Source: Mobula birostris (taxonomy: Eukaryota). Taken from it: 64,000 nucleotides of DNA. Both the position numbers and the translations under genes were made by a program. Shown in pieces: positions 2,714 to 64,000 of the stretch (its first letter is position 1; each line of letters begins with the position of its first letter). A model generated the notes under the pieces. The model was not told where the DNA came from and made no database searches. It worked only from the letters and a program-made list of their open reading frames with translations. The stretch lies in contig NC_092381.1 in NCBI RefSeq assembly GCF_030028105.1, positions 83,602,505 to 83,666,504 on the forward strand. Reading direction: 5' to 3'.

Positions 2714-4066
2714 CACTCTATCCTCATTATATGCGTCTTCAGACTATGCGAATTCACAGTTATGCGAGGAACCTATTTCTATCAACGTCTCATTATACGC
2801 GTCCAAAATTCACAGTTATGTGACGAGCACTGCCTTCCCGCCAATACGAGTCATGTGCGCACACCTCACAGTCTCACTGTTGGGACGAGAAGCACCGCTT
2901 TCCTGCCAATACAAGTCAGGTGTACGCGCCTCACAATCTCTCTCCCGTCACTCTCGCATTGGTTTTGGCAAGGTGCGGATGCGCGATCTTAAACTTCTGT
3001 TGGTTTTATCTACAGTGCAGTGATTTTGTGCTTGAAATATTTAATTATGCCTCTTAAGTGTCCAATGTCATGTCTTGGGACCTCAGCCAAGCGGCAGAGA
3101 ACCACTTTAACACTTGAAAAAAAAGTTGGATATTATAAACAGCACAGCATCTACTGCCCGGAACAGAATCTTGCCTTTAAAGTTCTTTTGTTGCTTGACA
3201 ATGCTCCAGCCCATCCTACACATTTGGACAGCATTCATCCTAACATAACAGTACATTGCAACACACATCAAAGTTGCTGGTGAACGCAGCAGGCCAGGCA
3301 GCATCTGCATAACAGTACATTTCCTGCCGCCTAACACAACATCGCTGATTCAACCACTTGACCGGTGTGATCCACATTCAAGGCGTGCGTATTTTTTTTT
3401 TTTTTTACGGTGAACTATCTCTCAGATGCTGCAAGCAACAGACGATTTTGAAAATCCCGGGAGTTTACCAACAGTGAAGGAATGGTGGAAGTCGGAACAC
3501 AAATGGCGATGGACATGGACCCAAGTTTAGAACGGAGTCAGCATTTCAGTCGTTCCCTGCCTTCAACCCTTCTTCCCTACAAGCAAATTTATGCTGAAAA
3601 GCAAAATGCTGCCAAGCAACAACCGGCACCACCTTATGTAAATCACTGTAATCTTTCTGCTGCCGGCAGTTCTAAGAGTTCTGTGAGTCTTCATTCACCC
3701 CTTGCTGTGCTTGATATTATCCTGACGACCACAACCAACCATGTCATCTATGTAAAGCTGCCCGACACCACAACAACCACTCGTCTCCTGGAGCGAACAC
3801 ACCTGCCACTGGTGAGTACTGCACGTCAGAGGATGATAACTTTCTATGACTTATTACATTGAATATTACCTTAAATTGATTAAATGTAATACAAATATTG
3901 TCTTGTAGTTCTGATTTTGTGTCGTATTGGTATAAAAATGTGAATAAGTTACAGGTAAAACATATTTAGGAAGCCCTCTGGAAAGCATCCCTATTTTCTC
4001 CATTTAAATAATTATTCACATTATGTGTCAAGGAACTTATCCCTCGCATATAATGAGGATAGGGTG
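2714..4066 (+). mobile_element. Tigger/pogo-like DNA transposon, internally deleted
   Basis: 22-bp terminal inverted repeats (cactctatcctcattatatgcg / cgcatataatgaggatagggtg) with TA on both sides. Transposase remnants AKRQRTTLTLEKK, KVLLLLDNAPAHP and FLPPNTTSLIQPLD. Confidence 0.92.
3258..3307. mobile_element. 50-bp Penelope-derived insertion with 14-bp TSD
   Basis: CATAACAGTACATT duplicated at 3244-3257 and 3308-3321; insert nearly identical to part of the 44.7-kb element. Confidence 0.8.
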
Positions 4067-5509: not shown

Positions 5510-5684
5510 CAGGGGATCCCAACTTGAGGTCTATGGACCACTTACTTAATGGAACACACACAAAATGCTGGAGGATTTTGCGTTGTGCTGCTTTTGATTT
5601 CCAGTATCTGCAGATTTTCTCGCGTTTGTGGTTCACTTGCTTAATGGTATTGGTCCATGGCATAAAAAAGGTTGAGAACCCCTG
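5510..5684. mobile_element. Short hAT-like MITE containing a Penelope-derived insert (5553-5633); other MITE copies at ~13866-13945 and ~18430-18509
   Basis: CAGGGG..CCCAAC / GGTTG.GAACCCCTG ends. Insert flanked by CACTT(A/G)CTTAATGG at 5539-5552 and 5634-5647. Confidence 0.7.
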
Positions 5685-21576: not shown

Positions 21577-22359
21577 GTGAGTGCAATCCTGAGGTGTGGG
21601 GCAGGGCTGAAGGGTTCTCTGAGGGAGTTTGTGCCGTAAGGCAGCTTGTGATGAGAAATGGAGATGCCATGGATTGTAAATCTTCATCAGTTCCTGGGTG
21701 ATCTGTGTTGTAATTGGTTTATTAATGCACCATGTACCAAGGTACAGTGAAGAACTTTGCTTTGCATGCCATCTGTACAGATCATTTCAGCGTATCAGTA
21801 CACTGAGGGAGCACAAAGGACAAACAATAACAGAATGTGGAATTCTGTGTTACACTCAGAGAAAGTGCAGTGCAAGGCAGACAACAAGATGCAAGGCGTG
21901 ATGAGGCTGATTTTGAGCACCGTTGTCCACCTTATCGTACAAGAGGTCCATTCAGTAGTCTTATAACAGTGGGTGAAAAGATGTCTTTGAGCCAGGTGCC
22001 ACAAACTCTCAGGCATTTGTATCTTCTGCCTGATGAGAGAGGGTAGCAGAGAGAATGCCTGAGGAGGGAGGGGTCTTTGATTAAACACGAGGGATTCTAC
22101 AGAAGCTGAAAGTCCAGAGCAACACAACAAAACACTGGAGGAGTGCTTCCTCTCGCACAGAGTGCGTCCTCCAGCATTTTGTTTGGGGTCTTTGTTAAAC
22201 TGGCTGCTTTGCCATGGGGGAGAGGCTGGTTTTTGTCATGTGCTGACCTGTGTCCACACGTCATTAGCTTAGACTAAAAGTAAGTTTTTTTCCTCGCCTT
22301 TCTAGTGAGTTCCATGAGGTTGCTGCATTGTACAATACTGTGTGGAAGTCTCAGGCACC

Positions 22360-24874: not shown

Positions 24875-26632
24875 CTTTATACTTATAGTTTATTGTTGCC
24901 AAACAATTGATACTAGAACGTACAATTATCACAGCGATATTTGATTCTGTGCTTCCCACTCCCTGGATTACAAATATTAAAAATTAAAAATAGTAAAAAA
25001 TTAGTAAATATTAAAAATTTAAATTATAAATCATAAATAGAAAATAGCAAAATGGAAAGTGAGGTAGTGCAAAAAAACCGAGAGGCAGGTCCGGATATTT
25101 GGAGGGTACGGCCCAGATCTGGGTCAGGATCCATTCAGCAGTTTTATCACAGTTGGAAAGAAGCTGTTCCCAAATCTGGCCTTACGAATCTTCAAGCTCC
25201 TGAGCCTTCTCCCAGAGGGAAGAGGGACGAAAAGTGTGTTGGCTGGGTGGGTCGTGTCCTTGATTATCCTGGCAGCAGTGCTTCGACAGTGTGCGGTGTA
25301 AAGTGAATCCAAGGACGGAAGATTGGTTTGTGTGATGTGCTGCGCCGTGTTCACAATCTTCTGCAGCTTCTTTCGGTCTTGGACAGGACAATTTCCATAC
25401 CAGGTTGTGATGCATCCTAGAAGAATGCTTTCTACGGTGCATCTATAAAAATTAGTGAGCGTTTTAGGGGACAGGCCAAATTTCTTTAGTTTTCTCAGGA
25501 AGTAAAGGAGCTGTTGGGCCTTCTTGACAGTGAACTCTGCTTGGTTGGACCAAGTCAGGTCATTTGTGATATTGACCCCGAGGAACTTAAAGCTTTTGAC
25601 CTGTTCCACTTGCGCACCACTGATGTAAATGGGGTCGTGCGGTCCGCTACTCCTTCTGAAGTCAACAGCCAATTCCTTCGTCTTGTGGATGTTGAGGGAT
25701 AGGTTATTGTCTTCGCACCATGCCACCAGGTTCTTAATTTCCTCACTGTACTCAAACTCATCATTACCAGAGATACGGCCTACAATTGTAGTGTCATCAG
25801 CAAACTTAGATATTGAGTTTGATGGAAACTTGGCTACACAATCACGGATGTACAGTGAGTACAGCAGGGGGCTGAGTACACAGCCTTGTGGGGCACCGGT
25901 GCTCAGAGTAATTGTAGAGGAGAGCTTGTCCCCAATTTTTACAGCCTGGGTCCTGTCTGTGAGGAAGCTGAAGATCCAGCTGCAGATCTGAGTGCTAAGG
26001 CCCAGGTTCCGGAGATTAGGAATCAGTTTATTTGGAATGATGGTATTAAAGGCAGAGCTGTAGTCAATGAAAAGGAACCTTACGTATGCGTCTTTATTCT
26101 CCAGGAGTTCTAAGGAGGAATGTAGGGCCAGAGAGATGGCATCTACCGTTGACCTGTTGCTCCGGTAGGCGAATTGCAAAGCGTCGAGGTTGACCGGTAG
26201 GCTGTGGTTGATGTGTGCCGTAACCAGTCTCTTGAAGCACTTCATAGCAATTGATGTCAGAGCCACAGGTGGATAGTCATTCAGGCATGCCACCTTGCTC
26301 TTCTTCGGCACTGGGATTATCGTTGCCTTCTTAAAACACGAGGGGATCTTAGACTGAAGCAAGGAGCAGTTGAAGATGTCAGCAAACACTCCAGCTAGCT
26401 CGCTTGCACAGGCCCTGAGAACCCATCCTAGGATGCCATCTGGGCCCGTCGCCTTCCTTGGATTTATCTTCAGGAAGGCTCTTCTGACATCCTCCTCGGT
26501 GACGATGAATCTCGATGCCACCAGGTCCGGTTCATCTGGAGGGAGTGGGATGCTCCTGTTCTGTTCGAATCTTGCGTAGAATACGTTAAGTTCGTCAGGA
26601 AGAGAAGCGCCATAGTTATTGATATTCCCACC
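24875..26632 (-). mobile_element. Young 5'-truncated Rex1/Babar-like LINE with an uninterrupted 465-codon RT frame (25124-26521)
   Basis: [53 protein letters not shown] and KFADDTT; 3' UTR also present at 30566-30780 (+). Confidence 0.93.
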
Positions 26633-26779
26633 TTTTTTTTTGCGCCTAGTGATTTTTCTTTCTTTCTATCACTTTCTAAGATGTTGCTGATTTTTTTTAA
26701 CCTCTTATCTGCTGTAATGTCTGACATGGTGTAAAGTACTGTTGAACCTAGGGTGATACAGAACAGAAACATGTTCTTT

Positions 26780-27132
26780 ACCAGTCCCAATCGCCTTTTC
26801 CCTCTCTCACCCCATCTCCTTGTCTGCCCTTCGCCACCTCTGGTGCTCCTCCTTCCTTTTCGTTCTTCCACGGCCTTCTGTCCTCTCCTGTTTGATTCCC
26901 TCCCACCTTCTCCAGCCCTGTATCTCTTTCACCAATCGACTTCCCAACTTGACCCCTCCACCTCCCGGTTTTAACTATCACCTTGTGTTCCCCCCCCCCC
27001 CCCACCTTTTAACTCTACTCCTCATCTTTTTTTCTCCAGTCCTGCTGAAGAGTCTCGTTCCCGAAACATCGACTACTCTTTTTCATCGATGCTGCCTGGC
27101 CGGCTGAGTTCCTCCAGCATTTTGTGTGTGTT
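26780..27132 (+). mobile_element. Penelope-like element 3' end / pseudo-LTR with degenerate hammerhead motif; second copy at ~41615-41936
   Basis: Pyrimidine-rich repeat ending cagtc-CTGCTGA...GAAACATC-gacta...gatgctgcctggcc..ctgagttcctccagcattttgtgtgtg. Confidence 0.7.
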
Positions 27133-28021
27133 TTTCAGCCCAACTAGTCCATGCTGACCAAGACTCCCCATCCAAGCTAGTCCCATTTGCTAGTGTTTGG
27201 CCCATAACCTTCTAAACCTTCACAACCCATGTATCTTTACAATTGTCTTTTAAATGTTGTTACTTTACCTGAGTCAGTCACTTTTTCTGGCAGCTAATTC
27301 CACATACTACATGCCACCTTTTTGTTGCCCCTCAAGTTTCGATTGAATTTTCTCCTCTCTTACCTTAAACCTACGCCCTCTTAGAGTACTGTCTACAGCG
27401 CTGGTGGCTGTTATAGGAAAGATGTGGTTAAATGGAAGACATTTGCAAGGATGTTGCTGGGACTAGATTGCCTGAGTTTAAGGAGAGGTTGGCCAGGCTA
27501 AGTCTTGATTCCTTGGAATGTTTAAAATTATGAGAAGCATAGGCAAGATGGTTGAGAGGTGAATAAGTACTAAAGACTGGAGCTGATCAACTGGCTAGAG
27601 TGTTCACCGATATCTTTAACACCTTGCTTTGGCATTCTGAGGTACCCACCTGCTTCAAGCAGGCTGCAATTATACTGGTGCCTAAGAAGAACATAGTAAC
27701 CTGCCTCAATGACTATCATCCAGTAGCACTGACATCCAATATGATGAAGTCCTTTGAGAAGTTGATGAGGAAGCGTACCAACTCCTGCCTGAGAAGTGAC
27801 TTGGATCTGGCACAACAGGTCCACAGCAGATGCCATTTTGTTGGCTCTTCACTCGACCCGGTACGATCTGGACTGCGAAGGATGCTCTTCATCGACTACA
27901 GCTTAGCTTTCAATACTATCATCCTCTCAAAAATATTCAATAAGCTTCAATTGGCCTCAATACCTCCTTGTGCAATTTGATCCCTGATTTCATCACTTGC
28001 AGATCCCAGTCAGTTTATATT

Positions 28022-28304
28022 AAAATCTGTCACGAGCCTTGTGGCCCTTTAGTCTGGTGCTTATGCCGGTTTCCATGGTGTGAAGCGACTGAGAGTATGA
28101 GACACCCCCCTGGATAGGACGCCAGTCTATCACGAGTTTTTAACCCCCAGCATTTTTGCGGGTACTCATTCTCAGCTGGGTAGACTGGAGCATTGTATGG
28201 TTAAGCGCCTTGCTCAAGGACACACATGCTACCTCAGCCGAGGCTCGAACCCACGACCTTCAGATTGCTAGTCCAGCGCCCTAACCACTTGGCTACATGC
28301 CACA
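28022..28304 (-). mobile_element. tRNA-derived SINE with CORE-like central domain and 15-bp TSD
   Basis: CAGTCAGTTTATATT at 28007-28021 and 28305-28319; A and B boxes on the minus strand; same family as 43994-44296. Confidence 0.88.
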
Positions 28305-35973: not shown

Positions 35974-38009
35974 GTAACTACTTACTGCATGCATGTAAAT
36001 ATGTTGTTGAAAGTTAGAGGTCTGATGCTTCTGAGATGCAGCGTCTCCTCGATTGTCCTCTTTGCTGGTAACTAGCTTTGAGCTTGAGAGGAAAAGGGGC
36101 AAAGTTCAGTGAAATAATTTGTTAAGCGCATGGTCAGTAAATTGAGTGTTCTGATTTACTCCTCTGGCTGGTTTGCCTATTTGAGTGGTGAAGTAATTTA
36201 TCTTATCCTAGAAGTTAGTTATTGGTAATTTTTTCATCTTTTCAGAAGACATGCCCTTGAATGTCTTGGGTTCAGCAAAGTTTTCTTTTAAATTTACTGA
36301 TTTTTAAGGTTGTTAAATCACTTCTCTGCCTCCTTGCCAGCGTTTCTTCTCAGTTCTTTTCCTTGTCGGGTTCAAAGATGTTAGAAATAATCTCTTGTAA
36401 AACCAAAAGCCAGAACTACAACCATGACCTGGGTTTTTTTTTGATGAGTGAAATGTTGCACAAAGATAAATTGAATATAGTTTAAAACATGAATCCTTTT
36501 ATCCCAAGATTAAAGCAGCAAATTATCATTGTTCCCTGATCAAGAGTTCATTAGATTTAAAGTTGGGGATATTTATAGCTGATATACTATGCACTGCCAC
36601 ATAATCCGTCTTGTGGTCATATATGGTAATGACAGGAGTATCTTGGTATGGTGAGGTTTTGAATGCTATTTATAGTGGAGACGTAAATATCTTTTGTCTA
36701 TGAATGAAGAACATTCTAATGCAGTTCCAAATAAAATGCTGTATCTCCAGAACACAGAAATTATAGGTTACACTTTCTGCTGCTTTGTGATTAAAAGTCT
36801 CAGCATCTTAATATATAGTATAATCACACTTCTGTTGTCTGGAGATGTGAAGATTTCCAGACATCTTGTCTCTAATCTTGATCATCCTAGAAGGCAAGTG
36901 ACTGATGGACTATGTAATCAAGAAGATGCTTTTTGTATAATTTTCTTTCCTCCTCCTGAATTGAAGAAATTTAATAATCTCTTGTCTCTTAAATGTTAAA
37001 GCATAATAGAATCATAAACAATTTATGACATTGGCCCTCTGAGCCTCTGTTTATTGAAAATGAGTTATTCAGTCTAATCCCATCGTCCACCACCAGACTT
37101 GTGGCCCTTGTAAATCTCTTCAGGTTGACATTCAAGACCAGATTAAATGTGATGAAGGTTTCTGCATCTTCTGTTCTTTCAGGCAATAAGTTCCACATTG
37201 CTACCACCACCCTCTGGGTGAAAGAAGTTTACAAACAATAACATTGAAATATATGCCCCGTAGTTTTTGGAAGTACTTTTCTAATTCCATTGTTACCTCT
37301 TACACCTCAATTGACTCTCTCTCTGTTCCTAAGGAAACAACCCTAGTTCATTCAGTCTTTCTCATATTTACGGTTCTAGCTGTAATTTTGTTAGATTTCT
37401 AAATCCATACAAAAACTAAAGTCATTTGTTGGAGTTCTGTCTAAGGCCATTTCCCAGCTTCCAATAAGATTTTGTGAGTCCCTGCGACAACTGTGGGGTA
37501 GGGAGAGAAGAGCAACTGTCCACATTGTCTGAATTTCTCAACTGCGTTCACATTTATCATCTCCGGTTTCAGTGTGAGGTATCAAGGTTGATTGTGGGTG
37601 TTCCAGGGGAGTTGCTACCAAGCTTAACACCTGGAACTTGGTGGAACACACAAAAAGCTGGAGGAACTCAGCAGGCCAGGCAACATTTGTGGAGGGTAAC
37701 GGACAATCGCCAATTCAGATTGAGAATCTTGAGACTGTCCCAAGATACTAGGTGACATGCTGAGTTTCTCCAGCTTTTTGTGCATTGCTTCAGATTCCAG
37801 CATCTGCAGTCTCATATCCACCTGTCACTTAATTCCCAGAGTTCTGATCAAACTGTTGTTTGACTCATGATGGGTTGAATATCGCCTCATGTTTCTTTGG
37901 TGGGTGAATATTTCCAGTTAATAGCTTTTGAGCTATCTCCTGTAAGGGCTGCTGAGGTTTAAGACATGCCCTCATATCAGTATGCAGCAGTGAATACTCC
38001 ATGAACTTT

Positions 38010-38704
38010 GGTTGACTTGTTCTCTGATCTTGGCAATTTACTTGCAAAGGTTTCATCACCATCGGAGACATCATCATTATGCTGTTGATCATGTTATGTC
38101 TTTTGAATGCTTGGCCTCTATGTACTTATCAATCAGCTGATTGGTCGCCGTATCGGAAACTCAGTTGTGATGTGGGGAGGAAATCTCGTTGCTGATTGGC
38201 TGTGTGGTGAACTTCATGCATTGTGGTTAGGAATTGTTTGCATTGCCTCATAAATAGGATCAAGGTTTACGTGTTTGTCTACAGAATTGTTCGTGGAAAA
38301 ACCACGCTTCTCAGAAATCCCTTGCGTGCCGCATGTTTGATTGTGCCATGACTTGCACTGATGCCCAGTTGAATTTATGTCCCTTTCGATCTTTGTGGGT
38401 AGAGACTAGGGACAGTTGGTCATGCCACTTTACAGCCAGTTGATGTTCATGGGTCCTTGTGGATAATTTTCTCCCAGTTTGACTGAGATAATACCTGCAG
38501 CAGCCACATAGCCAATCAGCGACGAGATTTCCTCCCCACATCACAATTGAGTTTCTGAAATGGCAACCAATCAGCTGATTGGTAAGTATATAAAGGCCAA
38601 GCATTCAGTGTACACACCACAATCAGCAGTGCACTGATGATATCTCCTCATATGGTGACAAAATGTTTGCAAGTAAATTGCCAAGATCGGAGAACAGCTC
38701 AACC
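38010..38704 (-). mobile_element. 5'-truncated Penelope-like element with GIY-YIG endonuclease remnant and inverted pseudo-LTRs
   Basis: YLSQTGRKLSTRTHEH...GHKFNW...RHARDF*EAW resembles the PLE GIY-YIG C-terminus; ~200-bp inverted arms at 38010-38207 and 38502-38704. Confidence 0.85.
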
Positions 38705-38913
38705 CAACCACCAACCATCCGGGTGAGACATTTTCTGAATTACTTCCAATTCCCTGGATTTGTTGCATGTCTAGCAATGTGGTTTCCCGTTATCCACGTG
38801 CAGTGGGTTGATAGATTGACAATTTCAAGCTCTGATAGCCAAGACAGAGCTGTTGATCAATGCAGGCATGAGATTGTCTGCATTTCTGTCCTAACAACTG
38901 CATTGTTATGCAG

Positions 38914-41422: not shown

Positions 41423-43289
41423 TCGTAACTTGGTCAATGTAGTTTTGAAGGGAGGTTTAAGGAGATGAGATGTTGATATAGTTGTCCAGGCTTTTCTTTT
41501 CTGGACGGAGTTAATTTAGGGAATGGTTGGTTAGGGTGAGGTAAAAGGATCAGTAAATGATAGTGATAGAAAGAGGGTGGAGTTAGAAGGAACAGACACT
41601 TCATCTTACTCTGTGCCCACCCATCTCCTCCCTCTAGTGCTCCCCCCACCTTTTCTTTCTTCCATGGCCTTCTGTCTCTTTCACCAATCAACTTCCCAGC
41701 TCTTTACTTCATCCCTCCCCCCCCTTCAGGTTTCACCTATCACCTGGTGTTTCTCCCCTCCCCCACCTTTTAAATCTACTCCTCAGCGTTTTTTCTCCAG
41801 TCCTGCTGAAGGGTTTTGGCCCAAGATGTCGACTATACTTTTTTCTATTGATGCTGCCTGGCCTGCTGAGTTCCTCCAGCATTTTGCGTGTGTGGCTTGG
41901 ATTTCCAGCATCTGTAGATTTTCTCTTGTTTGTGTTTGGAGTTAGAAGGAAGTTTCCTGTTTCGTGATGATGCAACACCTGAGGTTGTCTCCTGGTTATT
42001 TCTTTGGCATGTTAATAATTTAGCAAGTGCTTCCCTGATGTGTTAGTTTTACATTGTGTCTTTATTGGAAAATAATATTTATGTACACAATGTGGTGATA
42101 CCCTGAAACATCTTTTACTTTAAATTGCAGATTTAGAAAGTGAAAGTGGAATGATAAGGAACGTGAAAGTCAAATGATAAGGAAAAAGGGCAAAACAGAT
42201 AGATGGCACCAGCATAAACTACTTAGACAAACTGTTTCCTTGCAGTTGGTGGGGGGGGGGGGGAGTGCTCTTTGGTGATTGTGTCACTAGATTACTGGTC
42301 TGGAGGCCAGAACAATAACCAGTAATGAAACAAAAGGAAAAAAATGCCAGAAACATTCACACATCAGGCAGCATCTGTGGGAAGGGCTGCAAATGTTAAC
42401 ATTACAGGTCAGATGGCATCTGTAAGAGCTCTTTCAGCTTTCCAGCATCAGCAGATTTTTTATTTAATCCTTAATAACCAGTAGCAGGCTGGAAGACCTA
42501 GTGACAGAAATGAGACAGGAAAGAAGTGTTTATTCACTTCCCTCTGGCCAGTCTGCAGTGCTTCACTTTATTTATTTTCAGAATATGCATGATGTTGACA
42601 GCCGCAATCATTACCCTTGTTAAAGATAGTGCTCGGCAGCCCTGAATTGCTTGTGTCTGGGTGATAATGGAGGGGAATTTTGGAATACTGGCCACACATA
42701 ATTTCTGATTTTGCTCTCTTCATTTAGAAACTAACTCAAGTTGTATGAATTTCCTTTTTCTCTTTAGTTAGTTTCCTTGCACTCGGGCTATAAAGAGCCT
42801 GTTAAGGTTAAAGAATTGTTAAAGTCTAAATGCGCTGCTTCATTGTATTGCTCATTGATTTGTCGGGAGTCTCTGAAGGGCTGTCGTTCCCAATTACTTT
42901 GAAGTGCCAGTGTTGGCAGAATACTACAGCTGCAGAGACCTTGCTGAGTTATTAGTGTTTTCAGTAGATTGAGATGTAGCCTCAATGCTGCAGGGCCTGT
43001 AACTTTGTCAGACTTGATTTTGCTCTGCTTTAGAAATGAGTTTAAGTTGCATGAACTTAATGTGGCTCTTTAGTTTCTTTTCCCTCTGACTATAAAGTGC
43101 CTGTTATATTGAAGAACCGATGCAAATATAAGCAGCTTTAGGTGTTATCTAATTTTCATGATAAAAAGATGTGAACGATATAGAAATGTTTCCCCTTGGA
43201 GTGATACACTTCTGATCTTGATCTAAAATGTGCTTGCTTCATTGCGTGACATTATACTGATGCCCAGTCTTCACTCTTACCCTCTTCAG

Positions 43290-43502: not shown

Positions 43503-43993
43503 GTAAGAAACGTAGATTGGCAATATTTGCAAAGCAGCAATTTATTCCTTTCTCAATATTTTTCATCCTTCTTGTTAATGTTTATGTATTTTTTCTGAAT
43601 CTTCTTTAAAAACGCTATTAATTCTGGATTCCTATTAATAGTTGAGCATTTGAGAGTATGTCGGCACTTGCATCTCTTCCAAAAAACAGTGCAGCACTCC
43701 CTCAGTACTGCATTGGAACATCAGCCTAATTTGAACAACATAGCAGGGGTCTCTTTATTATCACATTTCTAGATGCAATTACTTACTTTCTGTTAAGATT
43801 TGATAATTGTGAAGGAATCTTTTGAGCTTATAGCGATGTTTCATTTGTTACTCCTCATACCAGCTTGCTTTTGCATTCATCATTTCCCTTGTTTCCTCTG
43901 CTCCTCCCTATTTAAAGATTATGTTGCCCAGAATGACAGGATTTTAGTCAGGCAAAATATTTAGAAATTGGGATCCAGCTTTGGGTTGTCATG

Positions 43994-44296
43994 TGGCGTG
44001 TGGCCAAGTGGTTAAGGCGTTGGACTAGTGATCTGAAGGTCGTGAGTTCGAGCCCCAGCCGAGGCAGCGTGTTGTGTCTTTGAGCAAGGCACTTAACCAC
44101 ACACTGCTCCAGTCCACCCAGCTGAAAATGGGTACCGGCAAAATGCTGGGGGTTAACCTCGTGATAGACTGACGTCCTATCCGGGGGGGGGGGGTGGGGG
44201 GGTGGGAGTCTCACACTCTCAGTCGCTTCACGCAGCAGAAACCGGCATAAGCACCAGCTTGATGAGCCTATAAAGCTCAGGACAGACTTTAACTTT
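43994..44296 (+). mobile_element. tRNA-derived SINE (A box TGGCCAAGTGG, B box GTTCGAGCC, CORE-like domain) with 14-bp TSD
   Basis: TTTGGGTTGTCATG at 43980-43993 and 44297-44310; tail gactttaacttt. Confidence 0.9.
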
Positions 44297-44680
44297 TTTG
44301 GGTTGTCATGGAGTCAGGGTGATGGGGTCCACCAGCCAGCTACTGGAGGTTGATTGATCTTCCAGATTTTATAATGTAGCAGTGCTACCTCACTTAGCCA
44401 TAATTTTCTTCAAGTATGGCCCAGTCAATAACTTGCATTTCCAGTCAGAAGACCCTGTATTTCAGATCCTGGTCCAGGGATTTGAATGCTAAAGTTCAGG
44501 CTGACATGCCAAAGCAGTATTGAGGAAGTGTGTTAAGCTGTACTGAAAATTATTAAGCAGGGCCCCACCTACAGTCTCAAGTGAATGTAAACAAAATCCT
44601 CGGGCACTATTTTTGAGTTGCTTGATGAAGATGTTCTTGGGTTTATTTAACCCTCAGCTGAACTATGAAATATAAGGACT

Positions 44681-44898
44681 AAAACAACAGGAATTCTGCA
44701 GATGCTGGAAATTCAAGCAACACACATCAAAGTTGCTGGTGAATGCAGTAGGCCAGGCAGCATCTCTAGGAAGAGGTGCAGTCGACGTTTCAGGCCGAGA
44801 CCCTTCATCAGGACTCCTGACGAAGGGTCTCGGCCTAAAACGTCGACTGCACCTCTTCCTAGAGATGCTGCCTGGCCTGCTGCGTTCACCAGCAACTT
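44681..44898. mobile_element. Penelope-derived fold-back (hairpin) insertion with 15-bp TSD
   Basis: TGAAATATAAGGACT at 44666-44680 and 44899-44913; inverted arms 44728-44813 and 44815-44900 with 4 mismatches. Confidence 0.9.
44779..44815 (-). ncRNA. Minimal type-I hammerhead ribozyme motif (Penelope-associated)
   Basis: Minus strand reads AGTC-CTGATGA-AGG-GTCTCGG-CCT-GAAACGTC-GACT: stem I, CUGAUGA core, stem II, GAAA, palindromic ACGU in place of stem III, and a GUC cleavage triplet. Confidence 0.8.
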
Positions 44899-46473
44899 TG
44901 AAATATAAGGACTGCTGACTTTCATAGTGTTTGTGTGGGTGTTCTATGCAAATGTTATATCTTGTGCTGTAATAAGTAATCAGCTAACAAGCCATTCAGA
45001 AAACCGATGGTTCAGCATCTGCCTCACTGGGTAGTGCGTACAGTGTCTGCTCACCCCAGCCTTTGGTTTCTGCATCCCCTTCCACCAGCACGTGTCCTGA
45101 TTCCTGTACTCCCATTAAAAATGTCTGCTGTTCTTTATTTTCTCTTGCACTGACTTAACACTTGATTGACACACTGTAGTGTCACCATACAGCATGGTTT
45201 TATAAAATTGAATTGAAAAATGTTTGGAATGTTAACAAAATAACATCTGATGGTCTGGAAAATCTCCGGCTCTGGCACCACCAAAGACCCAGGCAGCTGG
45301 TTTACTAGGGTTTATCCATATCACCATGTCCAACAATACTGAATAGAATGTAAGTTAATTGTTTGTAAGCAAGTGTGCGCTTCATGTATCTTCCCGTCTA
45401 CTCCAGCAATGAAACCTGTCTCTTAGTACAAGGTAAGTCCTGTTGAATCAAGGGGCAAATCCCATCCAGGTGTGCATTTGAAGCCACCACCACCAGCTTC
45501 ATTGCCCGCCAAATAGAATGAATTTTCATCAGTCCCTTACTCTCTGCTCCCTGACACTTGCCTGCTGTCAATAACCTGATAGCTTGTTAGTCTTTCAATG
45601 TGACAGGCTGTGGCCAGGAAGCAGAGACAAAATTCGTAGCTTGGATTGTCCTATTAAATTTAACAGGATTCAAGGAAAACTTGTCCTGCTTCCGGGATTT
45701 AATTCATTCCACAGTGTTTACTCCGCTGACAGTGAAATACACTTCAGCTTTTATTCCACTTAATTTATTTTTGGTTGAGGATCCTTATTCTAGGAGGGTG
45801 AAATGTAATGGAAAATGTTGCTGCTTTCCGCAATCTTTAAGATGTACGTAGTCACTGTGGCTGTGTTCTAAACAGGGAAAAGAATTGTAGATCAAAGATT
45901 TTCTTGCATGGTGTTGGCTCTGACGTACAATTCAAATGATGGTGCAGTTTTCGTCTTTGTCCCTGGGGATTCATTTGTCAAAGTCGACTGATATCCTAGA
46001 TATCTTTTACGCCTGTTTGAAGTGGAAAATTAACTGAGTTGGGCAACTCAGTCTTCCATTCTAAATTCTTTCAGTTCCTTAATAAGCATACTGTAGCCCC
46101 TTTAATAAACTGTCAAGAAATTTCCTTGACATCTTTGTTGGGATTGGATATGATGGTGCATTTTTAGTCATGAACAGAATAATTTAGTGTTTGTTGTGGT
46201 GATTGAAACTTCCACAATACTAAATCGGCACGAAAGGCAAAATTTGCTCTGTGTGTTATTCTTTGTGCTTACTTTTGATAGCCGTCCATCTGTCAGATTG
46301 TATTCATCACCAGCAGTTTGGAGAAAGACAGTTTGGAACCAGGCCCTTCAGCTCACTGAATCTACTGTGTACCAACTAACAAGCATCTGTTTGCACTGCT
46401 CTGGCACTTTTTTATTCTCCCACATTCTCATCAGTTCTCTTCAGCTCTTGCACCGGGGCAACTTGGAGTGGCT

Positions 46474-46682
46474 TGTTTTTCATTTGGGGCCCTTAGCTCC
46501 CAAGTGGAGGATAGGGCATCGTCCTCTGAAATCGATGGTACAGTTGGAGTTAATCAATGCTTCTGCAATCTGTTGCATTCACTGTACAGGGGATTGGCCT
46601 GTAGAGCGTCACCAGAGCCCTGTTGGCCAGCCTTAACACGTTTCTACCTCTCACAACGGGGACAGAGGGTTGGACATTGAGA
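46474..46682 (-). mobile_element. 209-bp retroposed insertion with 17-bp TSD, possibly an RTE-type SINE or LINE 3' end
   Basis: GGCAACTTGGAGTGGCT at 46457-46473 and 46683-46699; the minus-strand end gatgccctatcctccacttgggagctaaggg resembles RTE 3' ends. Confidence 0.65.
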
Positions 46683-46948
46683 GGCAACTTGGAGTGGCTG
46701 ATTGACCAAATATCCTGGGATGTAGGAGGACATGCATGGTCACAGGAAGAAAGTGTAAATTCTACACTGACAGCACCTGGGGTGAGGGTTGATGGGTCTC
46801 TGGTCCTGCAAGTCAGTGACTATACTAGCTCAGAATTACATCTTTAGTTCAGTCACTATTTCTCCCCTGCCCAACCTACAAATTTTGATTTAGGGGTTCA
46901 AGTAGAACAGATATGAGGAATAAAATGATTTTGTTTTCATTACTGCAG

Positions 46949-48505: not shown

Positions 48506-49559
48506 AAATTAGGTCACTGGATTAGATGTAGACACAAAAAGATTAATGTTTATTGTTTGCAGTGACTTTCAGTGTCATTAACCAGGGATATGAACTTGGA
48601 AGTCTTCAAACATTCATCACTATTTGCTTAAATCAACGTGTTTACTTCAAGTACATGTGTGCTGCTCAAATTGCATTTCATCATTTGTCTACTTTGTTTT
48701 TCTTTAGTACAAGAAACCTTTGAATCTTTTTTGATTTGAGCAAAAAGAAAAGAGGAGTTATGTTCACTTCGAAATGAAATTTGTTGGAGATGGTGAATGC
48801 CCATTTGAACTGTTGCAGCTCCTGTTAATGAAAGATCTTATTGCAGAACCCTATTTCAGGGTTTTGACCCAGTGATGATGGGGATGTATTTCAATATGAA
48901 GAATGTGTATAACTTAAAGGGCAACCTGTGTATGGTGGTATTTCAATGTGCTGGCTATTCTTGTTCAAAATTGAAAGTAAATTTATTATCAAACTACATG
49001 AATTTCATCATATGCAATCATGAGGTTTGTTTTCTTGCGGGCATACTCAATTAATCCACAATAGAATAATAACCATAATAGGATCAACGAAAGACCTCAC
49101 CAACTTGTGTGTTCAACCAGTCTGCAAAAGACAACAAACCACGCAAATACAAAAAGAAAGAAATAATAAATAAATAAGCGGTAAACATCGAGAACATGAG
49201 ATGAAGAGTCTTTGAAAGTGAGTCCATGGGTTGTGGAACATTTCAGTGATGGGGCAAGTGAAGGTGAGTGAAATTATCCCCTTTGGTTGAAGAGCCTGAT
49301 TGTTGAGTGCTAATATCTGTTTCTGAACCTGGTGCTGTGAGCCTTGAGGCTCCTGTACCTTCTTCCTAATGGCAGTAGTGAGAAAGGAGCATGCCCTGGG
49401 TGGTGGGGGTCCCTGATGCTAGATGCTGCTTTCCTGTGATAATGCTGAGGAGGGCCTTACCTATGACGGACTGTGCTATTTGTAGGATTTTTACGTTTAG
49501 GGCATTGGTGTTTCCATACCAGGCTGTGATGCAGCCAGGCAATATACTCTCCACTACAC

Positions 49560-50091
49560 CTCTTGTTGTATTACAAACTGCTCTGCATGGAATTTTACAT
49601 TCCCCTCCCTGGGGGTGCAACAGAAAGTAGCTGCACTCTGTGTCGGATACAGTATATAGACATAAAATGCACGCTCCGTGGCAATTCACCAAGCCAAAGT
49701 TGTAGATGTCATGCTGTATCTTCGCAAAGTCCTCAGGAAACTGAGGCGCTGCTGTGCTTTCTTCATTATCGCCCTTTCGACTGAGCTCAGGACAAGCCGT
49801 CTGAAATGACAGCACTGAGGAATTTAAAGTCACTGACCCTCTCCTCCTCTGATGAGGACTGGTTCATGGACCTCTGCTTCCCTCCTCCTGGTCAATAATC
49901 AACAACCATGAGAGCAACTCAGTGTCAGTCCTTGTTCTTCTAACTGCCAGTTGGCGAGGTGCTGAAAAAGGCTTGGTGAATTGCCACAGAGTATGTACTG
50001 TATCTGACACAGATTGCAGTTACTTTCTGTCGCACCCCCAGGGAAGGGTACGTAAAATTCCGTGCAGAGCAGTTTGTAATACAACAAAAGA
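49560..50091. repeat. Local inverted repeat (49560-49695 vs 49970-50091)
   Basis: ttgtattacaaactgctctgca...ggcaattcaccaagcc versus its reverse complement ggcttggtgaattgcc...tgcagagcagtttgtaatacaa. Confidence 0.88.
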
Positions 50092-51289
50092 TGCAGGAAC
50101 TGCGTCATTGGTTATTCCAAAACTCTTGATAAGCAATGTGGGGGGGAAAGTTTATTTGTATTAATAATGAGGGTTCCTTTACGATAAAGGAAAAACTTCC
50201 CAAGAAACATACGTAAGAATTTGGGAGGAAGTGATCAGTGGCCAAACTTCTTTGAATCTAGTTGTGTTTAAGATCCTAATATATTTTCCAATTTAACTTG
50301 TCAGAACTGGGAAGGGAATGGAGAGTGAAAAACTCGCAGGACATGTTCAGAAGTCCTAACGCAGTACAGAGATTGTGTGGATGTTGCAACAAACGTTCTA
50401 TATCACTGCCTTGTTTGACTTATCCCATAGAGTTAAAGAAGAGCTGTAACTACTGGGAGATAATGTGGACATGGGGAGACATGTAGACTTTGCCAGTATC
50501 TGGTAGTTGACCTGTTTTTTTTAGTAGATTTTGGTTGCAAATTGCACATTGACTTTTTTGAGCCAGTACAACTGCTCTCATTAGTGTCCCATATTCACCT
50601 ATTCCAATATTTAAATGGAATATCATGGTTCTAATAAACCGTTCTTGGGAATTGGATGTTATTTTACTTTTTGTTGCCAATATATGGTTACTTAGATCTG
50701 TGGAACACAGTGAGAAATGCTCAATCAATAAATTGTTTTGTTTTATAGACAGTAATAACAAATGTAGCAATTGAATTCAGCATACCTAGATCTAAAATAT
50801 GTAATAACTATATTAAATCATTAATTTATCAAACTTAATACTACCAATATATTTGGGAATACTTAAATTTAAAGTTTTTTTTATATGTGGCCTATGACAT
50901 TATGGCTACGTATCTTCACAATTGTGTGAGTTTGAAAACAGGAGGATTTCCCTTGGACAGCTCCTAATATTTTCTGCAGTCATCATATTTATAAATCTCT
51001 CCTAAGAGCATCTTGCATTATTTAAAAGTTTTGATTTTACTTTCCACATGCTTAATACACTTTTATCATTTTGGTGAGTTTGCTGTAATTGCCTTGCTTT
51101 TTTTGTGATGTTCCTGAAAAAGAAAAGAAATTTCTTTGGGTTATTGGGGTTGGAGATTTTTTTGTGCATGCATAACACATTACATTGAATGTGTTGGCTT
51201 CAATTAACTTCAAAGGTGCATAACCAGCCCACATCCTTCTCCAACATCTCGATGCTGATTGCTGAAAAGTTATACCCAACGCTCAATTC

Positions 51290-55949: not shown

Positions 55950-56520
55950 TAAAGAAAAGTCCGGCGAAGTAACTATCGGGGCTGTACTCTGCAAGTTAAT
56001 CGTGCTTGCCGCTCCCGGACTGACCGGATCCGAGTGCGGCTGCGCGCAGGCAGACCGTTAAGTGTCAGCCGGAGAGCGGAGTGAGGACGGTCGCGGGGCG
56101 GCTCGGAGCTGGAGGGTGCGGGCTGGGTTGGGTGGGGTCCTTCCCGTGGCTGGGAGTCAGGGCTACCGTGAGGTGGCCGTCTTGATTTCGCGTCTGTGTG
56201 TGCGGTTTCCGTTCTTCGTACGGTGGGCCCCAGTGGTCGGCCGGCTGGTGGGGTCGGTCGCCATGGGCAACCGTGGGATGGAGGAGCTCATCCCCATGGT
56301 CAACCGCCTGCAAGATGCCTTCTCCGCCGTCGGCCAGAGCTGCAAGCTGGACCTGCCGCAGATCGCGGTGGTGGGCGGGCAGAGCTCCGGCAAGAGCTCG
56401 GTGCTGGAAAGTTTCGTTGGCAGGTGAGGAACCAGGCACGGTGGTGGGGAACGTGTATTTGGGGGAGAGGGGTGGGTGGTGAGTGATTAATCCGCATGCG
56501 CGCAAAGTTTGGTGGAATCT
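55950..56520 (+). promoter_or_regulatory. CpG island / promoter and 5' region of the dynamin gene
   Basis: Abrupt rise in GC and CpG content; NRF1-like TGCGCGCA at 56041 and GCATGCGCGCA at ~56494. Confidence 0.75.
56263..56423 (+). CDS. DNM3: Classical dynamin coding exon 1 (GTPase N-terminus and P-loop), most likely dynamin-3
   Basis: Kozak GCCATGG; [53 protein letters not shown]+AG|gtgagg; 161 nt. The GQSC segment and position downstream of METTL13 match human DNM3. Confidence 0.88.
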
Positions 56521-62964: not shown

Positions 62965-63679
62965 TATGAAACCTCACTGTTATGAAAGACCTACATTAGT
63001 ACCCTGTTTTCGCTTTCAGAAGGTGTTTTAACTGTTATGGAAAAAAAGCGGCGCGCGATAAAAGACAGTGCACGCCCCGAGCAGCCGCTCTTCCCGGATT
63101 CGGAACGGCATTGCATTAACACGTGCCTGTAAGCAGCCGTTTGCAAGATGAGTGCTATGGTATCGGAAAAGCCTAAAAGAGCTCTTAAGGGTGTTACACT
63201 TAGCGTAAAACTAGACATAATTAAGCATTTCGATCGTGGTGAACGAAGTAAGGACAAAGTGAGTTTGGCTTGTGGAAGCTGACGAACATGATGTTGAAGA
63301 GGTTTTGGCATCCCACGACCAAGAACTGACAGATGAAGAGCCGATGCAATTGGAAGAAAAAAGGATAACAATCGAAACTGAATGAGTAATGATAAAGTAC
63401 GACTTTAATTTTGAAAGGGTACGTCGGTTTAGGGGATATTTGCAGGATGGTTTGAGTCCTTACCAAGAACTGTGTGATAGAAAAATGCGCGCAGCTCAAC
63501 AGTCAAGGAAGCCTAGCCACAGCAGACGACGAACCTCAACCTTCGACATCAAGGCGAGCAGTCATAGGAGAAGATGAGCTGCCTGCTCTAATGGAAACAG
63601 ACGACGAGATGACACCTCAGTGTCCCACCACCCTAACCCCCGGGCCTCGGACAGATACCGATTCATGGAGAATGCAAAG

Positions 63680-63900
63680 GCAGCCGGGAGGCACACAGCA
63701 CATCTTTAAGAAAAAAGCCGAAATAAACATGCTAATTAATTAGGTGCCGCCGACACATAATTGTCAGCCCAGATCAGAGACGATGCAATCGGAAATCGGC
63801 ACTGATCTGGGCTGACAATTACATGCCGGGCGGCACCTAATTAATTAGCATGTTTGTTTCGGCTTTTTTCTTAAAGATGTGCTGTGTGCCTCCCGGCTAC
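63680..63900. repeat. Hairpin with ~98-bp arms inside the Tigger-like element
   Basis: gcagccgggaggcacacagcacatctttaag...cagatcag versus ctgatctg...cttaaagatgtgctgtgtgcctcccggctac; ~24-nt spacer. Confidence 0.9.
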
Positions 63901-64000
63901 CGCTGCACCCCTGCATGCTTCGCGGCAATGTATCGCTCGGTGGCCTGGAGGGTGGGGTCCACTGCACCACTCAGTCTAACTCACCATCATCCGTGTGCTC

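Follow-up and report, generated by a model that had tools for sequence, protein, structure and literature searches.

A young insertion with head-to-head, hammerhead-bearing repeat ends in a METTL13 intron of Mobula birostris is probably a Penelope-like integration product

In a 64-kb stretch of Mobula birostris DNA (the whole stretch analysed, hereafter the window), an intron of METTL13 carries a young insertion of 218 bp, which consists of two head-to-head ends of a hammerhead-bearing repeat. We consider it quite probable that this insert is a dead, one-off integration product of a Penelope-like element (PLE) and not a hairpin that copies itself. Both origins had been suggested in the original prediction. 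The PLE integration product is supported by the one-sided tail, the inverted arms and the short duplication, whereas the mobile, retrozyme-like element found no support, as the junction of the METTL13 insert occurs at none of the four other inverted loci of the window, which are older copies of a sister family. Altogether, the insert displays four traits of PLEs: a hammerhead within a terminal repeat, a tail on one side, an inverted, 5'-truncated head-to-head copy and a short duplication of an AT-rich site.

METTL13 was found on the plus strand with eight coding exons, and the intronic location that had been proposed for the insert was confirmed. Among named proteins, the closest one belongs to Mobula birostris (95% over the frame of the large exon), and the exon product matches PDB 5WCJ. 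The distances from the insert to the splice sites are 1.2 kb and 2.0 kb. Long double-stranded RNA had been anticipated in the METTL13 pre-mRNA, and folding indeed predicts an 87-bp hairpin there, which could be useful to the host as a substrate of ADAR or Dicer that regulates METTL13. Such a role is nevertheless very improbable: the insert is apparently missing in two relatives, and it lies at the distances given above from the splice sites with no sign of conservation. Run X9, which is RNA by guess, contains 4,353 contigs of the repeat family and leaves the intronic flank of the METTL13 insert uncovered. The same intron harbours a tRNA-headed SINE-like repeat (43992-44292), a second copy of which is found at 28020-28304. 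A 513-amino acid open reverse transcriptase frame with a LINE-like character and an ALKBH8_N match is located in a METTL13 intron on the minus strand (25124-26665). Downstream of METTL13, a dynamin-family coding exon begins at 56062-56427, which may reflect the synteny of METTL13 and DNM3.

The insert is flanked by perfect direct repeats of 15 bp with the sequence TGAAATATAAGGACT, as the original prediction had it, and its coordinates hold (Table 1). The probability of finding such a repeat by chance is about 6e-7 when a slack of +/-10 nt is allowed at both ends. Since the right arm extends into the duplication with its last 3 nt, the true length of the duplication is 12-15 bp. The predicted fold-back around one central base was likewise confirmed, with arms measured at 87 nt and four mismatches at 44744, 44749, 44807/44821 and 44791/44837. 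All four are C:G to T:A transitions, and their contexts have no motif in common. The left copy contains 46 nt (44681-44726) without a partner in the right arm, and the PLE-type tail lies within this segment; before 44682, loose ends are present in 293 contigs of run X1 and 299 contigs of run X5. The right end lies around 10 nt away from the usual inner terminus and shows 7/8 microhomology to the target (P of about 4e-4 in that register), and at the one mismatching position the base of the element is present. As RNA, the insert folds with -181.6 kcal/mol (z -26.8), and none of 200 shuffled sequences was equally stable.

Table 1. Features of the METTL13 insert and its surroundings (positions in the window)
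Feature	Position	Strand	Basis or remark
METTL13 intron 6 (sixth of seven coding introns), GT-AG	43503..46948	+	exon map
Left copy of the target-site duplication	44666..44680	+	73% AT; match of the organism B contig ends exactly at 44680
Right copy of the target-site duplication	44899..44913	+	first 3 nt fit the element too
Left arm of the fold-back, 87 nt	44727..44813	-	arm alignment
Right arm, an inverted, tail-less copy (unit 3-89), 87 nt	44815..44901	+	arm and unit alignment
Head-to-head junction GGACTCC, self-complementary except for the central C (44814)	44811..44817	+	1-nt arm overlap
Full unit of 135 nt in RNA sense, hammerhead 5' end to outer 3' terminus	44681..44815	-	
Tail of about 35 nt, from the outer terminus (unit 133-135) to the inner termini of relatives (unit 93-100)	44681..44716	-	left arm only
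Microhomology (7/8) of the element end to the target at 44661-44668	44894..44901	+	target immediately left of the duplication
Minimal type-I hammerhead, complete: helix I of 4 bp, CUGAUGA core, bulged A, helix II of 4 bp including G10.1-U11.1, GAAA, CG helix-III remnant	44780..44815	-	motif descriptor
Broken hammerhead copy, the only sense copy in the METTL13 pre-mRNA	44813..44848	+	arm comparison

The age of the insert was assessed by comparing contigs of relatives over positions 44300-44815. A single-copy contig of organism B matches positions 44300-44680 with four differences in 381 nt; the match ends at the last base of the duplication, and the contig continues for another 1,688 nt that are unlike the element. 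The match of a contig of organism C ends at 44677 and is followed by 99 nt. These comparisons strongly indicate that the insertion site is empty in both organisms, and empty sites in relatives would make the insertion young, i.e., later than a split of about 1% divergence. It is almost certainly not an artefact of assembly or of a folded-back read. Palindromes are a known class of artefacts; however, the arms differ at four positions, the duplication is perfect, similar structures recur in the window, and a contig of X1, which may be the source sample, crosses the left junction and extends to 44703. From the flank divergence of 1%, 0.9 arm differences are expected versus the four observed (P 0.014), and P rises to 0.05-0.13 when CpG hypermutation is allowed. 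The excess of differences weakly favours two separate templates for the arms. At 44744 and 44749, it is the right arm whose base agrees with the majority of the family (around 69% and 98% of the X1 depth, respectively).

The motif of the left arm had been described as an intact minimal type-I hammerhead on the minus strand. It is indeed complete; the helix II register proposed for it did not hold, since an alternative with a bulged A and 4 bp including G10.1-U11.1 is more stable (-6.0 versus -4.6 kcal/mol). With the better register, the usual G10.1-C11.1 pair is absent from both arms. A minimal-hammerhead descriptor matched once in the 64 kb, on the minus strand with the core at 44811, compared to 0.017 matches per shuffled window in 60 shuffles. 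The covariance models of Rfam returned no hammerhead match for either motif, merely generic hairpins under the gathering score, which weighs little for minimal motifs that lack helix III. In the right arm, the change of GAAA to AAAA, by which G12 is lost, and the broken helix I were both found as originally described. The complete hammerhead is antisense to METTL13, with a cut predicted between 44784 and 44783. Folding models of the minus strand, where the antisense arm is transcribed first, leave the core bases unpaired with a probability of less than 0.002, and the plus strand is predicted to form the same hairpin. As the motif would be buried in a hairpin on either strand, the hammerhead is predicted to be inactive and to be a passenger of the insert. 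A mobile double-hammerhead element is thus not borne out: each strand has one motif, that of the pre-mRNA is broken, and both are buried by the hairpin. A dimer of the two motifs acting in cis was ruled out, because the motifs lie on opposite strands and no transcript contains two sense motifs. The fold-back point does coincide with the 5' boundary of the ribozyme, although this boundary lies around 30 nt upstream of the cleavage site. Formation of the junction by self-cleavage was rejected, since the junction is located that far upstream of the cut and the core is retained. The retention of the core upstream of the predicted cut suggests that the template was uncleaved and that cleavage did not set the junction.

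The window contains 11 related loci. At five of these, including the METTL13 insert, both orientations exceed the 99% null and are arranged head to head. The inner ends of the inverted loci differ, with unit positions 80/74, 54/74, 52/53 and 104/16 at the other four and 3/1 in the METTL13 insert. These four sister-family insertions with different junctions are located at 5539-5647, 22072-22195, 37631-37810 and 42364-42464, the first of which is flanked by a 14-bp duplication with 13/14 identical positions. The one-sided tail of about 35 nt is found at four of the five inverted loci, where the longer arm extends to unit 119-135 and the shorter one to unit 89-100. Duplications of 11-15 bp were detected at six of ten loci tested, with 60-91% AT, and the hammerhead core is broken in seven of eight spans examined. 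The only other window copy of the same subfamily, a simple 49-bp piece at 3258-3306, has a perfect 14-bp duplication (span 3244-3321), ends at the inner start site and matches the variants of the right arm. Longer, pLTR-like sister copies at 41578-41951 and 26780-27135 contain a pyrimidine-rich region upstream of the hammerhead, and the former is flanked by a perfect 15-bp duplication. Run X1 contains 44,374 contigs on the unit. In three runs, the depth summed over the unit exceeds that of the flank by a factor of about 2e5-9e5, which is an order of magnitude only and no copy number. The family may thus comprise roughly 10^5 copies or more. Two exact patterns gave no match in collections of metagenomes, viruses or prokaryotes. 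Unrelated to the hammerhead family, a near-perfect palindrome of 235 bp (88%) with MITE-like features is present at 63673-63907, and two more long inverted-repeat pairs at 38007-38707 and 49554-50096 are possibly non-autonomous DNA transposons.

Could the 218 bp move as a unit, i.e., as an independently replicating, non-autonomous hairpin of the retrozyme or MITE type? The clean duplication, the young age, the intact core of one arm and the fact that both arms end at the ribozyme boundary are in accordance with such an element. It is quite improbable, however, given that its junction has no second copy in the window and that it carries one motif per strand, which is buried and has its junction away from the cleavage site. 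Moreover, the tandem array that defines animal retrozymes is missing. The joint listing of X1 also leans against a multi-copy hairpin: among the joints listed (the best 15 of 45 and 12 of 96 rows, which cover a part of the joints), the junction of the METTL13 insert is absent, and joint depth does not exceed 67 at flank depths of 9-17. The repeat might instead be a short retroposon unrelated to PLEs that contains a hammerhead-like motif. The frequency of broken cores fits this reading, as does the search for a parent ORF: no reverse transcriptase or GIY-YIG ORF adjoins the window copies (Pfam, 73 and 29 frames), a protein search with the open frame in the arm yielded only two exonised copies and no PLE protein, and another with a frame from the long sister copy had no match. 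As no such ORF is linked to the repeat, its assignment to the PLEs is based on motif and architecture. Both of these make a non-PLE retroposon improbable, since a minimal hammerhead with a bulged nucleotide and a palindromic remnant, a one-sided tail of 35 nt, inverted copies and the lack of a poly(A) or tRNA head are PLE traits when taken together.

The junction of the insert coincides with a boundary at the start of helix I that appears to recur in the family. Among the listed joints with intervening letters, which are the best-supported ones and not independent of each other, nine of 12 start at 44811-44815, eight of them with three letters or fewer. Loose ends at the helix-I start rank among the top rows of each of the four runs, where their proximity to the end of the reference means that they may be due to clipping. 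In X1, about 4,300 contigs continue past the end of the stretch compared to 103 loose ends at 44814, which marks the boundary as a hotspot and not as a rule. Several of the listed joints, which are multi-copy, connect 44812-44815 with 44778-44781, which are the two strands of helix I, and may be stem-primed fold-backs or tandem duplications of 35 nt. Two unrelated Mobula gene models (P0121 and P0122), an isoform of STARD3NL and an uncharacterised protein, contain the repeat as coding sequence; both enter it at the same residue (V-SPDEG) and leave it at VCC, which corresponds to the inner site. Exonisation through a splice acceptor is a possible explanation for both models. In the sister copies at 41578-41951 and 26780-27135, a T-tract followed by CCAGTCC precedes the helix-I start, and TTTAA is found at -30. 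We take this arrangement to fit a TATA box and an initiator whose +1 is the A at the end of the left arm, in agreement with the initiator consensus. It fits equally well a branch point, a pyrimidine tract and an AG acceptor in front of the T that starts the right arm, and Drosophila Penelope, in which the end of an intron is the 5' end of helix I, is a precedent for the latter. The boundary at the 5' end of the hammerhead would accordingly be either a transcription start or a splice acceptor.

Analysis of termini, arms and junction suggests that the insert likely arose by priming at both ends of the target at two start sites, with the cDNAs joined at the recurrent RNA boundary. A PLE protein would cut both strands of the AT-rich site 12-15 nt apart, and each 3' end would prime reverse transcription inside uncleaved pLTR RNA. 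The left end would be primed at the outer site, whereby the tail is kept, and the right end near the inner site, shifted around 10 nt inward by the 7/8 match to the target. Both cDNAs would stop at the recurrent boundary, i.e., the transcription start or splice acceptor at the 5' end of the hammerhead, pair via their self-complementary GGACTCC ends and be repaired into a palindrome. If both ends are primed in this manner, the same junction may recur independently, and recurrence alone would be no proof of a mobile hairpin. Tentatively, the hairpin may be read as the fossil of a symmetric double priming by a PLE dimer, in which two separate RNAs, each with its 5' end fixed at base one of helix I, were copied onto the two ends of a single staggered cut and the run-off cDNAs were joined head to head. 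According to the available sections of PMC11167929, the PLE protein of the anole cuts AT-rich DNA on both strands and extends both, two internal start sites define the tail, uncleaved RNA is used with no requirement for hammerhead cleavage, and the protein was modelled as a dimer.

It is possible, if rather doubtful, that the insert shares this PLE origin and derives from a single cDNA, which folded back, took itself as a new template or was self-primed on antisense RNA and was then joined to the far end of the target by microhomology. To our knowledge, a hairpin needs a loop of more than 1 nt to act as a primer, which argues against this single-cDNA route, although the near symmetry of the junction fits it. 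The microhomology at the right end, where the base of the element is retained, is consistent with the annealing of a fold-back strand, the joints linking the two strands of helix I are as expected from a stem-primed fold-back, and the arm differences are compatible with later mutation at high CpG rates (P 0.12-0.13). On the other hand, the short arm of the other inverted copies terminates in the inner start cluster (unit 93-100) and not at random positions. Twin priming of the L1 type inverts a sequence without duplicating it, and its action on one RNA stretch was rejected for this reason. Arkhipova et al. (2013) proposed self-priming on antisense RNA from palindromic junctions (PMC3846280, in the text available), whereas the extension of both strands in vitro (PMC11167929, likewise) speaks for priming at both ends.

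The value of the insert is mechanistic and does not lie in a ribozyme element. In the sections available of the literature, the origin of the inverted repeats and tails of PLEs is unsettled, with antisense self-priming, endonuclease resolution and two start sites as proposals. Ray genomes appear to hold at least 10^5 short copies, some with empty sites in close relatives, and the arm-by-arm comparison of such young copies could show, with no experiment needed, whether a one-template or a two-template model applies. If double priming is true, internal priming around 130 nt from the 5' end would yield ORF-less miniatures by default, which would explain why rays have so many copies, and young species-specific copies would settle the origin of inverted pLTRs. 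Furthermore, inserts of the METTL13 kind bring long predicted double-stranded RNA into introns.

The covered literature, which includes few subscription papers and has Repbase and Dfam outside its scope, contained no account of the ray family and no proposal that inverted pLTRs arise by double priming, and the words "penelope" and "ribozyme" do not occur in the accessible text of bioRxiv 10.64898/2026.10.27.761883. The following comparisons refer to the available parts of the cited papers. Closest to the insert are the insertions of EN+ PLEs with an inverted pLTR and a tail (PMC3846280, PMC8557442, PMC2377424), for which an inverted 5'-truncated copy, a tail of 30-40 bp at one end and a short duplication are typical (PMC3846280, PMC8557442). 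The head-to-head copy, the tail at one end and the short duplication are shared with the METTL13 insert, as are the palindromic junction and the hammerhead in the repeat. Unlike these insertions, the METTL13 insert has no ORF between its repeats and measures 218 bp in all, and the duplications at the ray loci are 11-15 bp long compared to 8-10 bp for the insertions from rotifers.

Poseidon of Anolis carolinensis (PMC11167929) has in common with the ray repeat a spacing of about 35 nt between two termini downstream of the hammerhead, the AT-rich targets and the uncleaved template; the available text of that paper offers no explanation of inverted copies, and the ray repeat differs in that no conserved ORF start is apparent within its hammerhead. 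With animal non-LTR retrozymes (PMC7229834; bioRxiv 10.64898/2026.07.22.740005), the insert shares its non-coding nature, the type-I hammerhead and the relation to PLE pLTRs. Retrozymes, however, are same-strand tandem repeats with complete hammerheads that give rise to circular RNAs, while the METTL13 insert consists of just one inverted pair, each strand of which bears one motif, and one of the two motifs is broken and dead. The minimal hammerheads of metazoan PLEs (PMC4209133) likewise possess a short helix I, a bulged base before helix II and a palindromic helix-III remnant. Helix II, however, comprises 7-8 bp in the Schistosoma families and 4 bp in the METTL13 insert, in which G10.1-U11.1 replaces the conserved G-C of PLE hammerheads and the motif is buried in a perfect hairpin. 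The same study described dual motifs 100-700 bp apart on opposite strands as early as 2014, as well as widespread solo motifs derived from truncated PLEs. The METTL13 insert is thus likely an ordinary kind of PLE integration product, which follows a pattern that has already been described.
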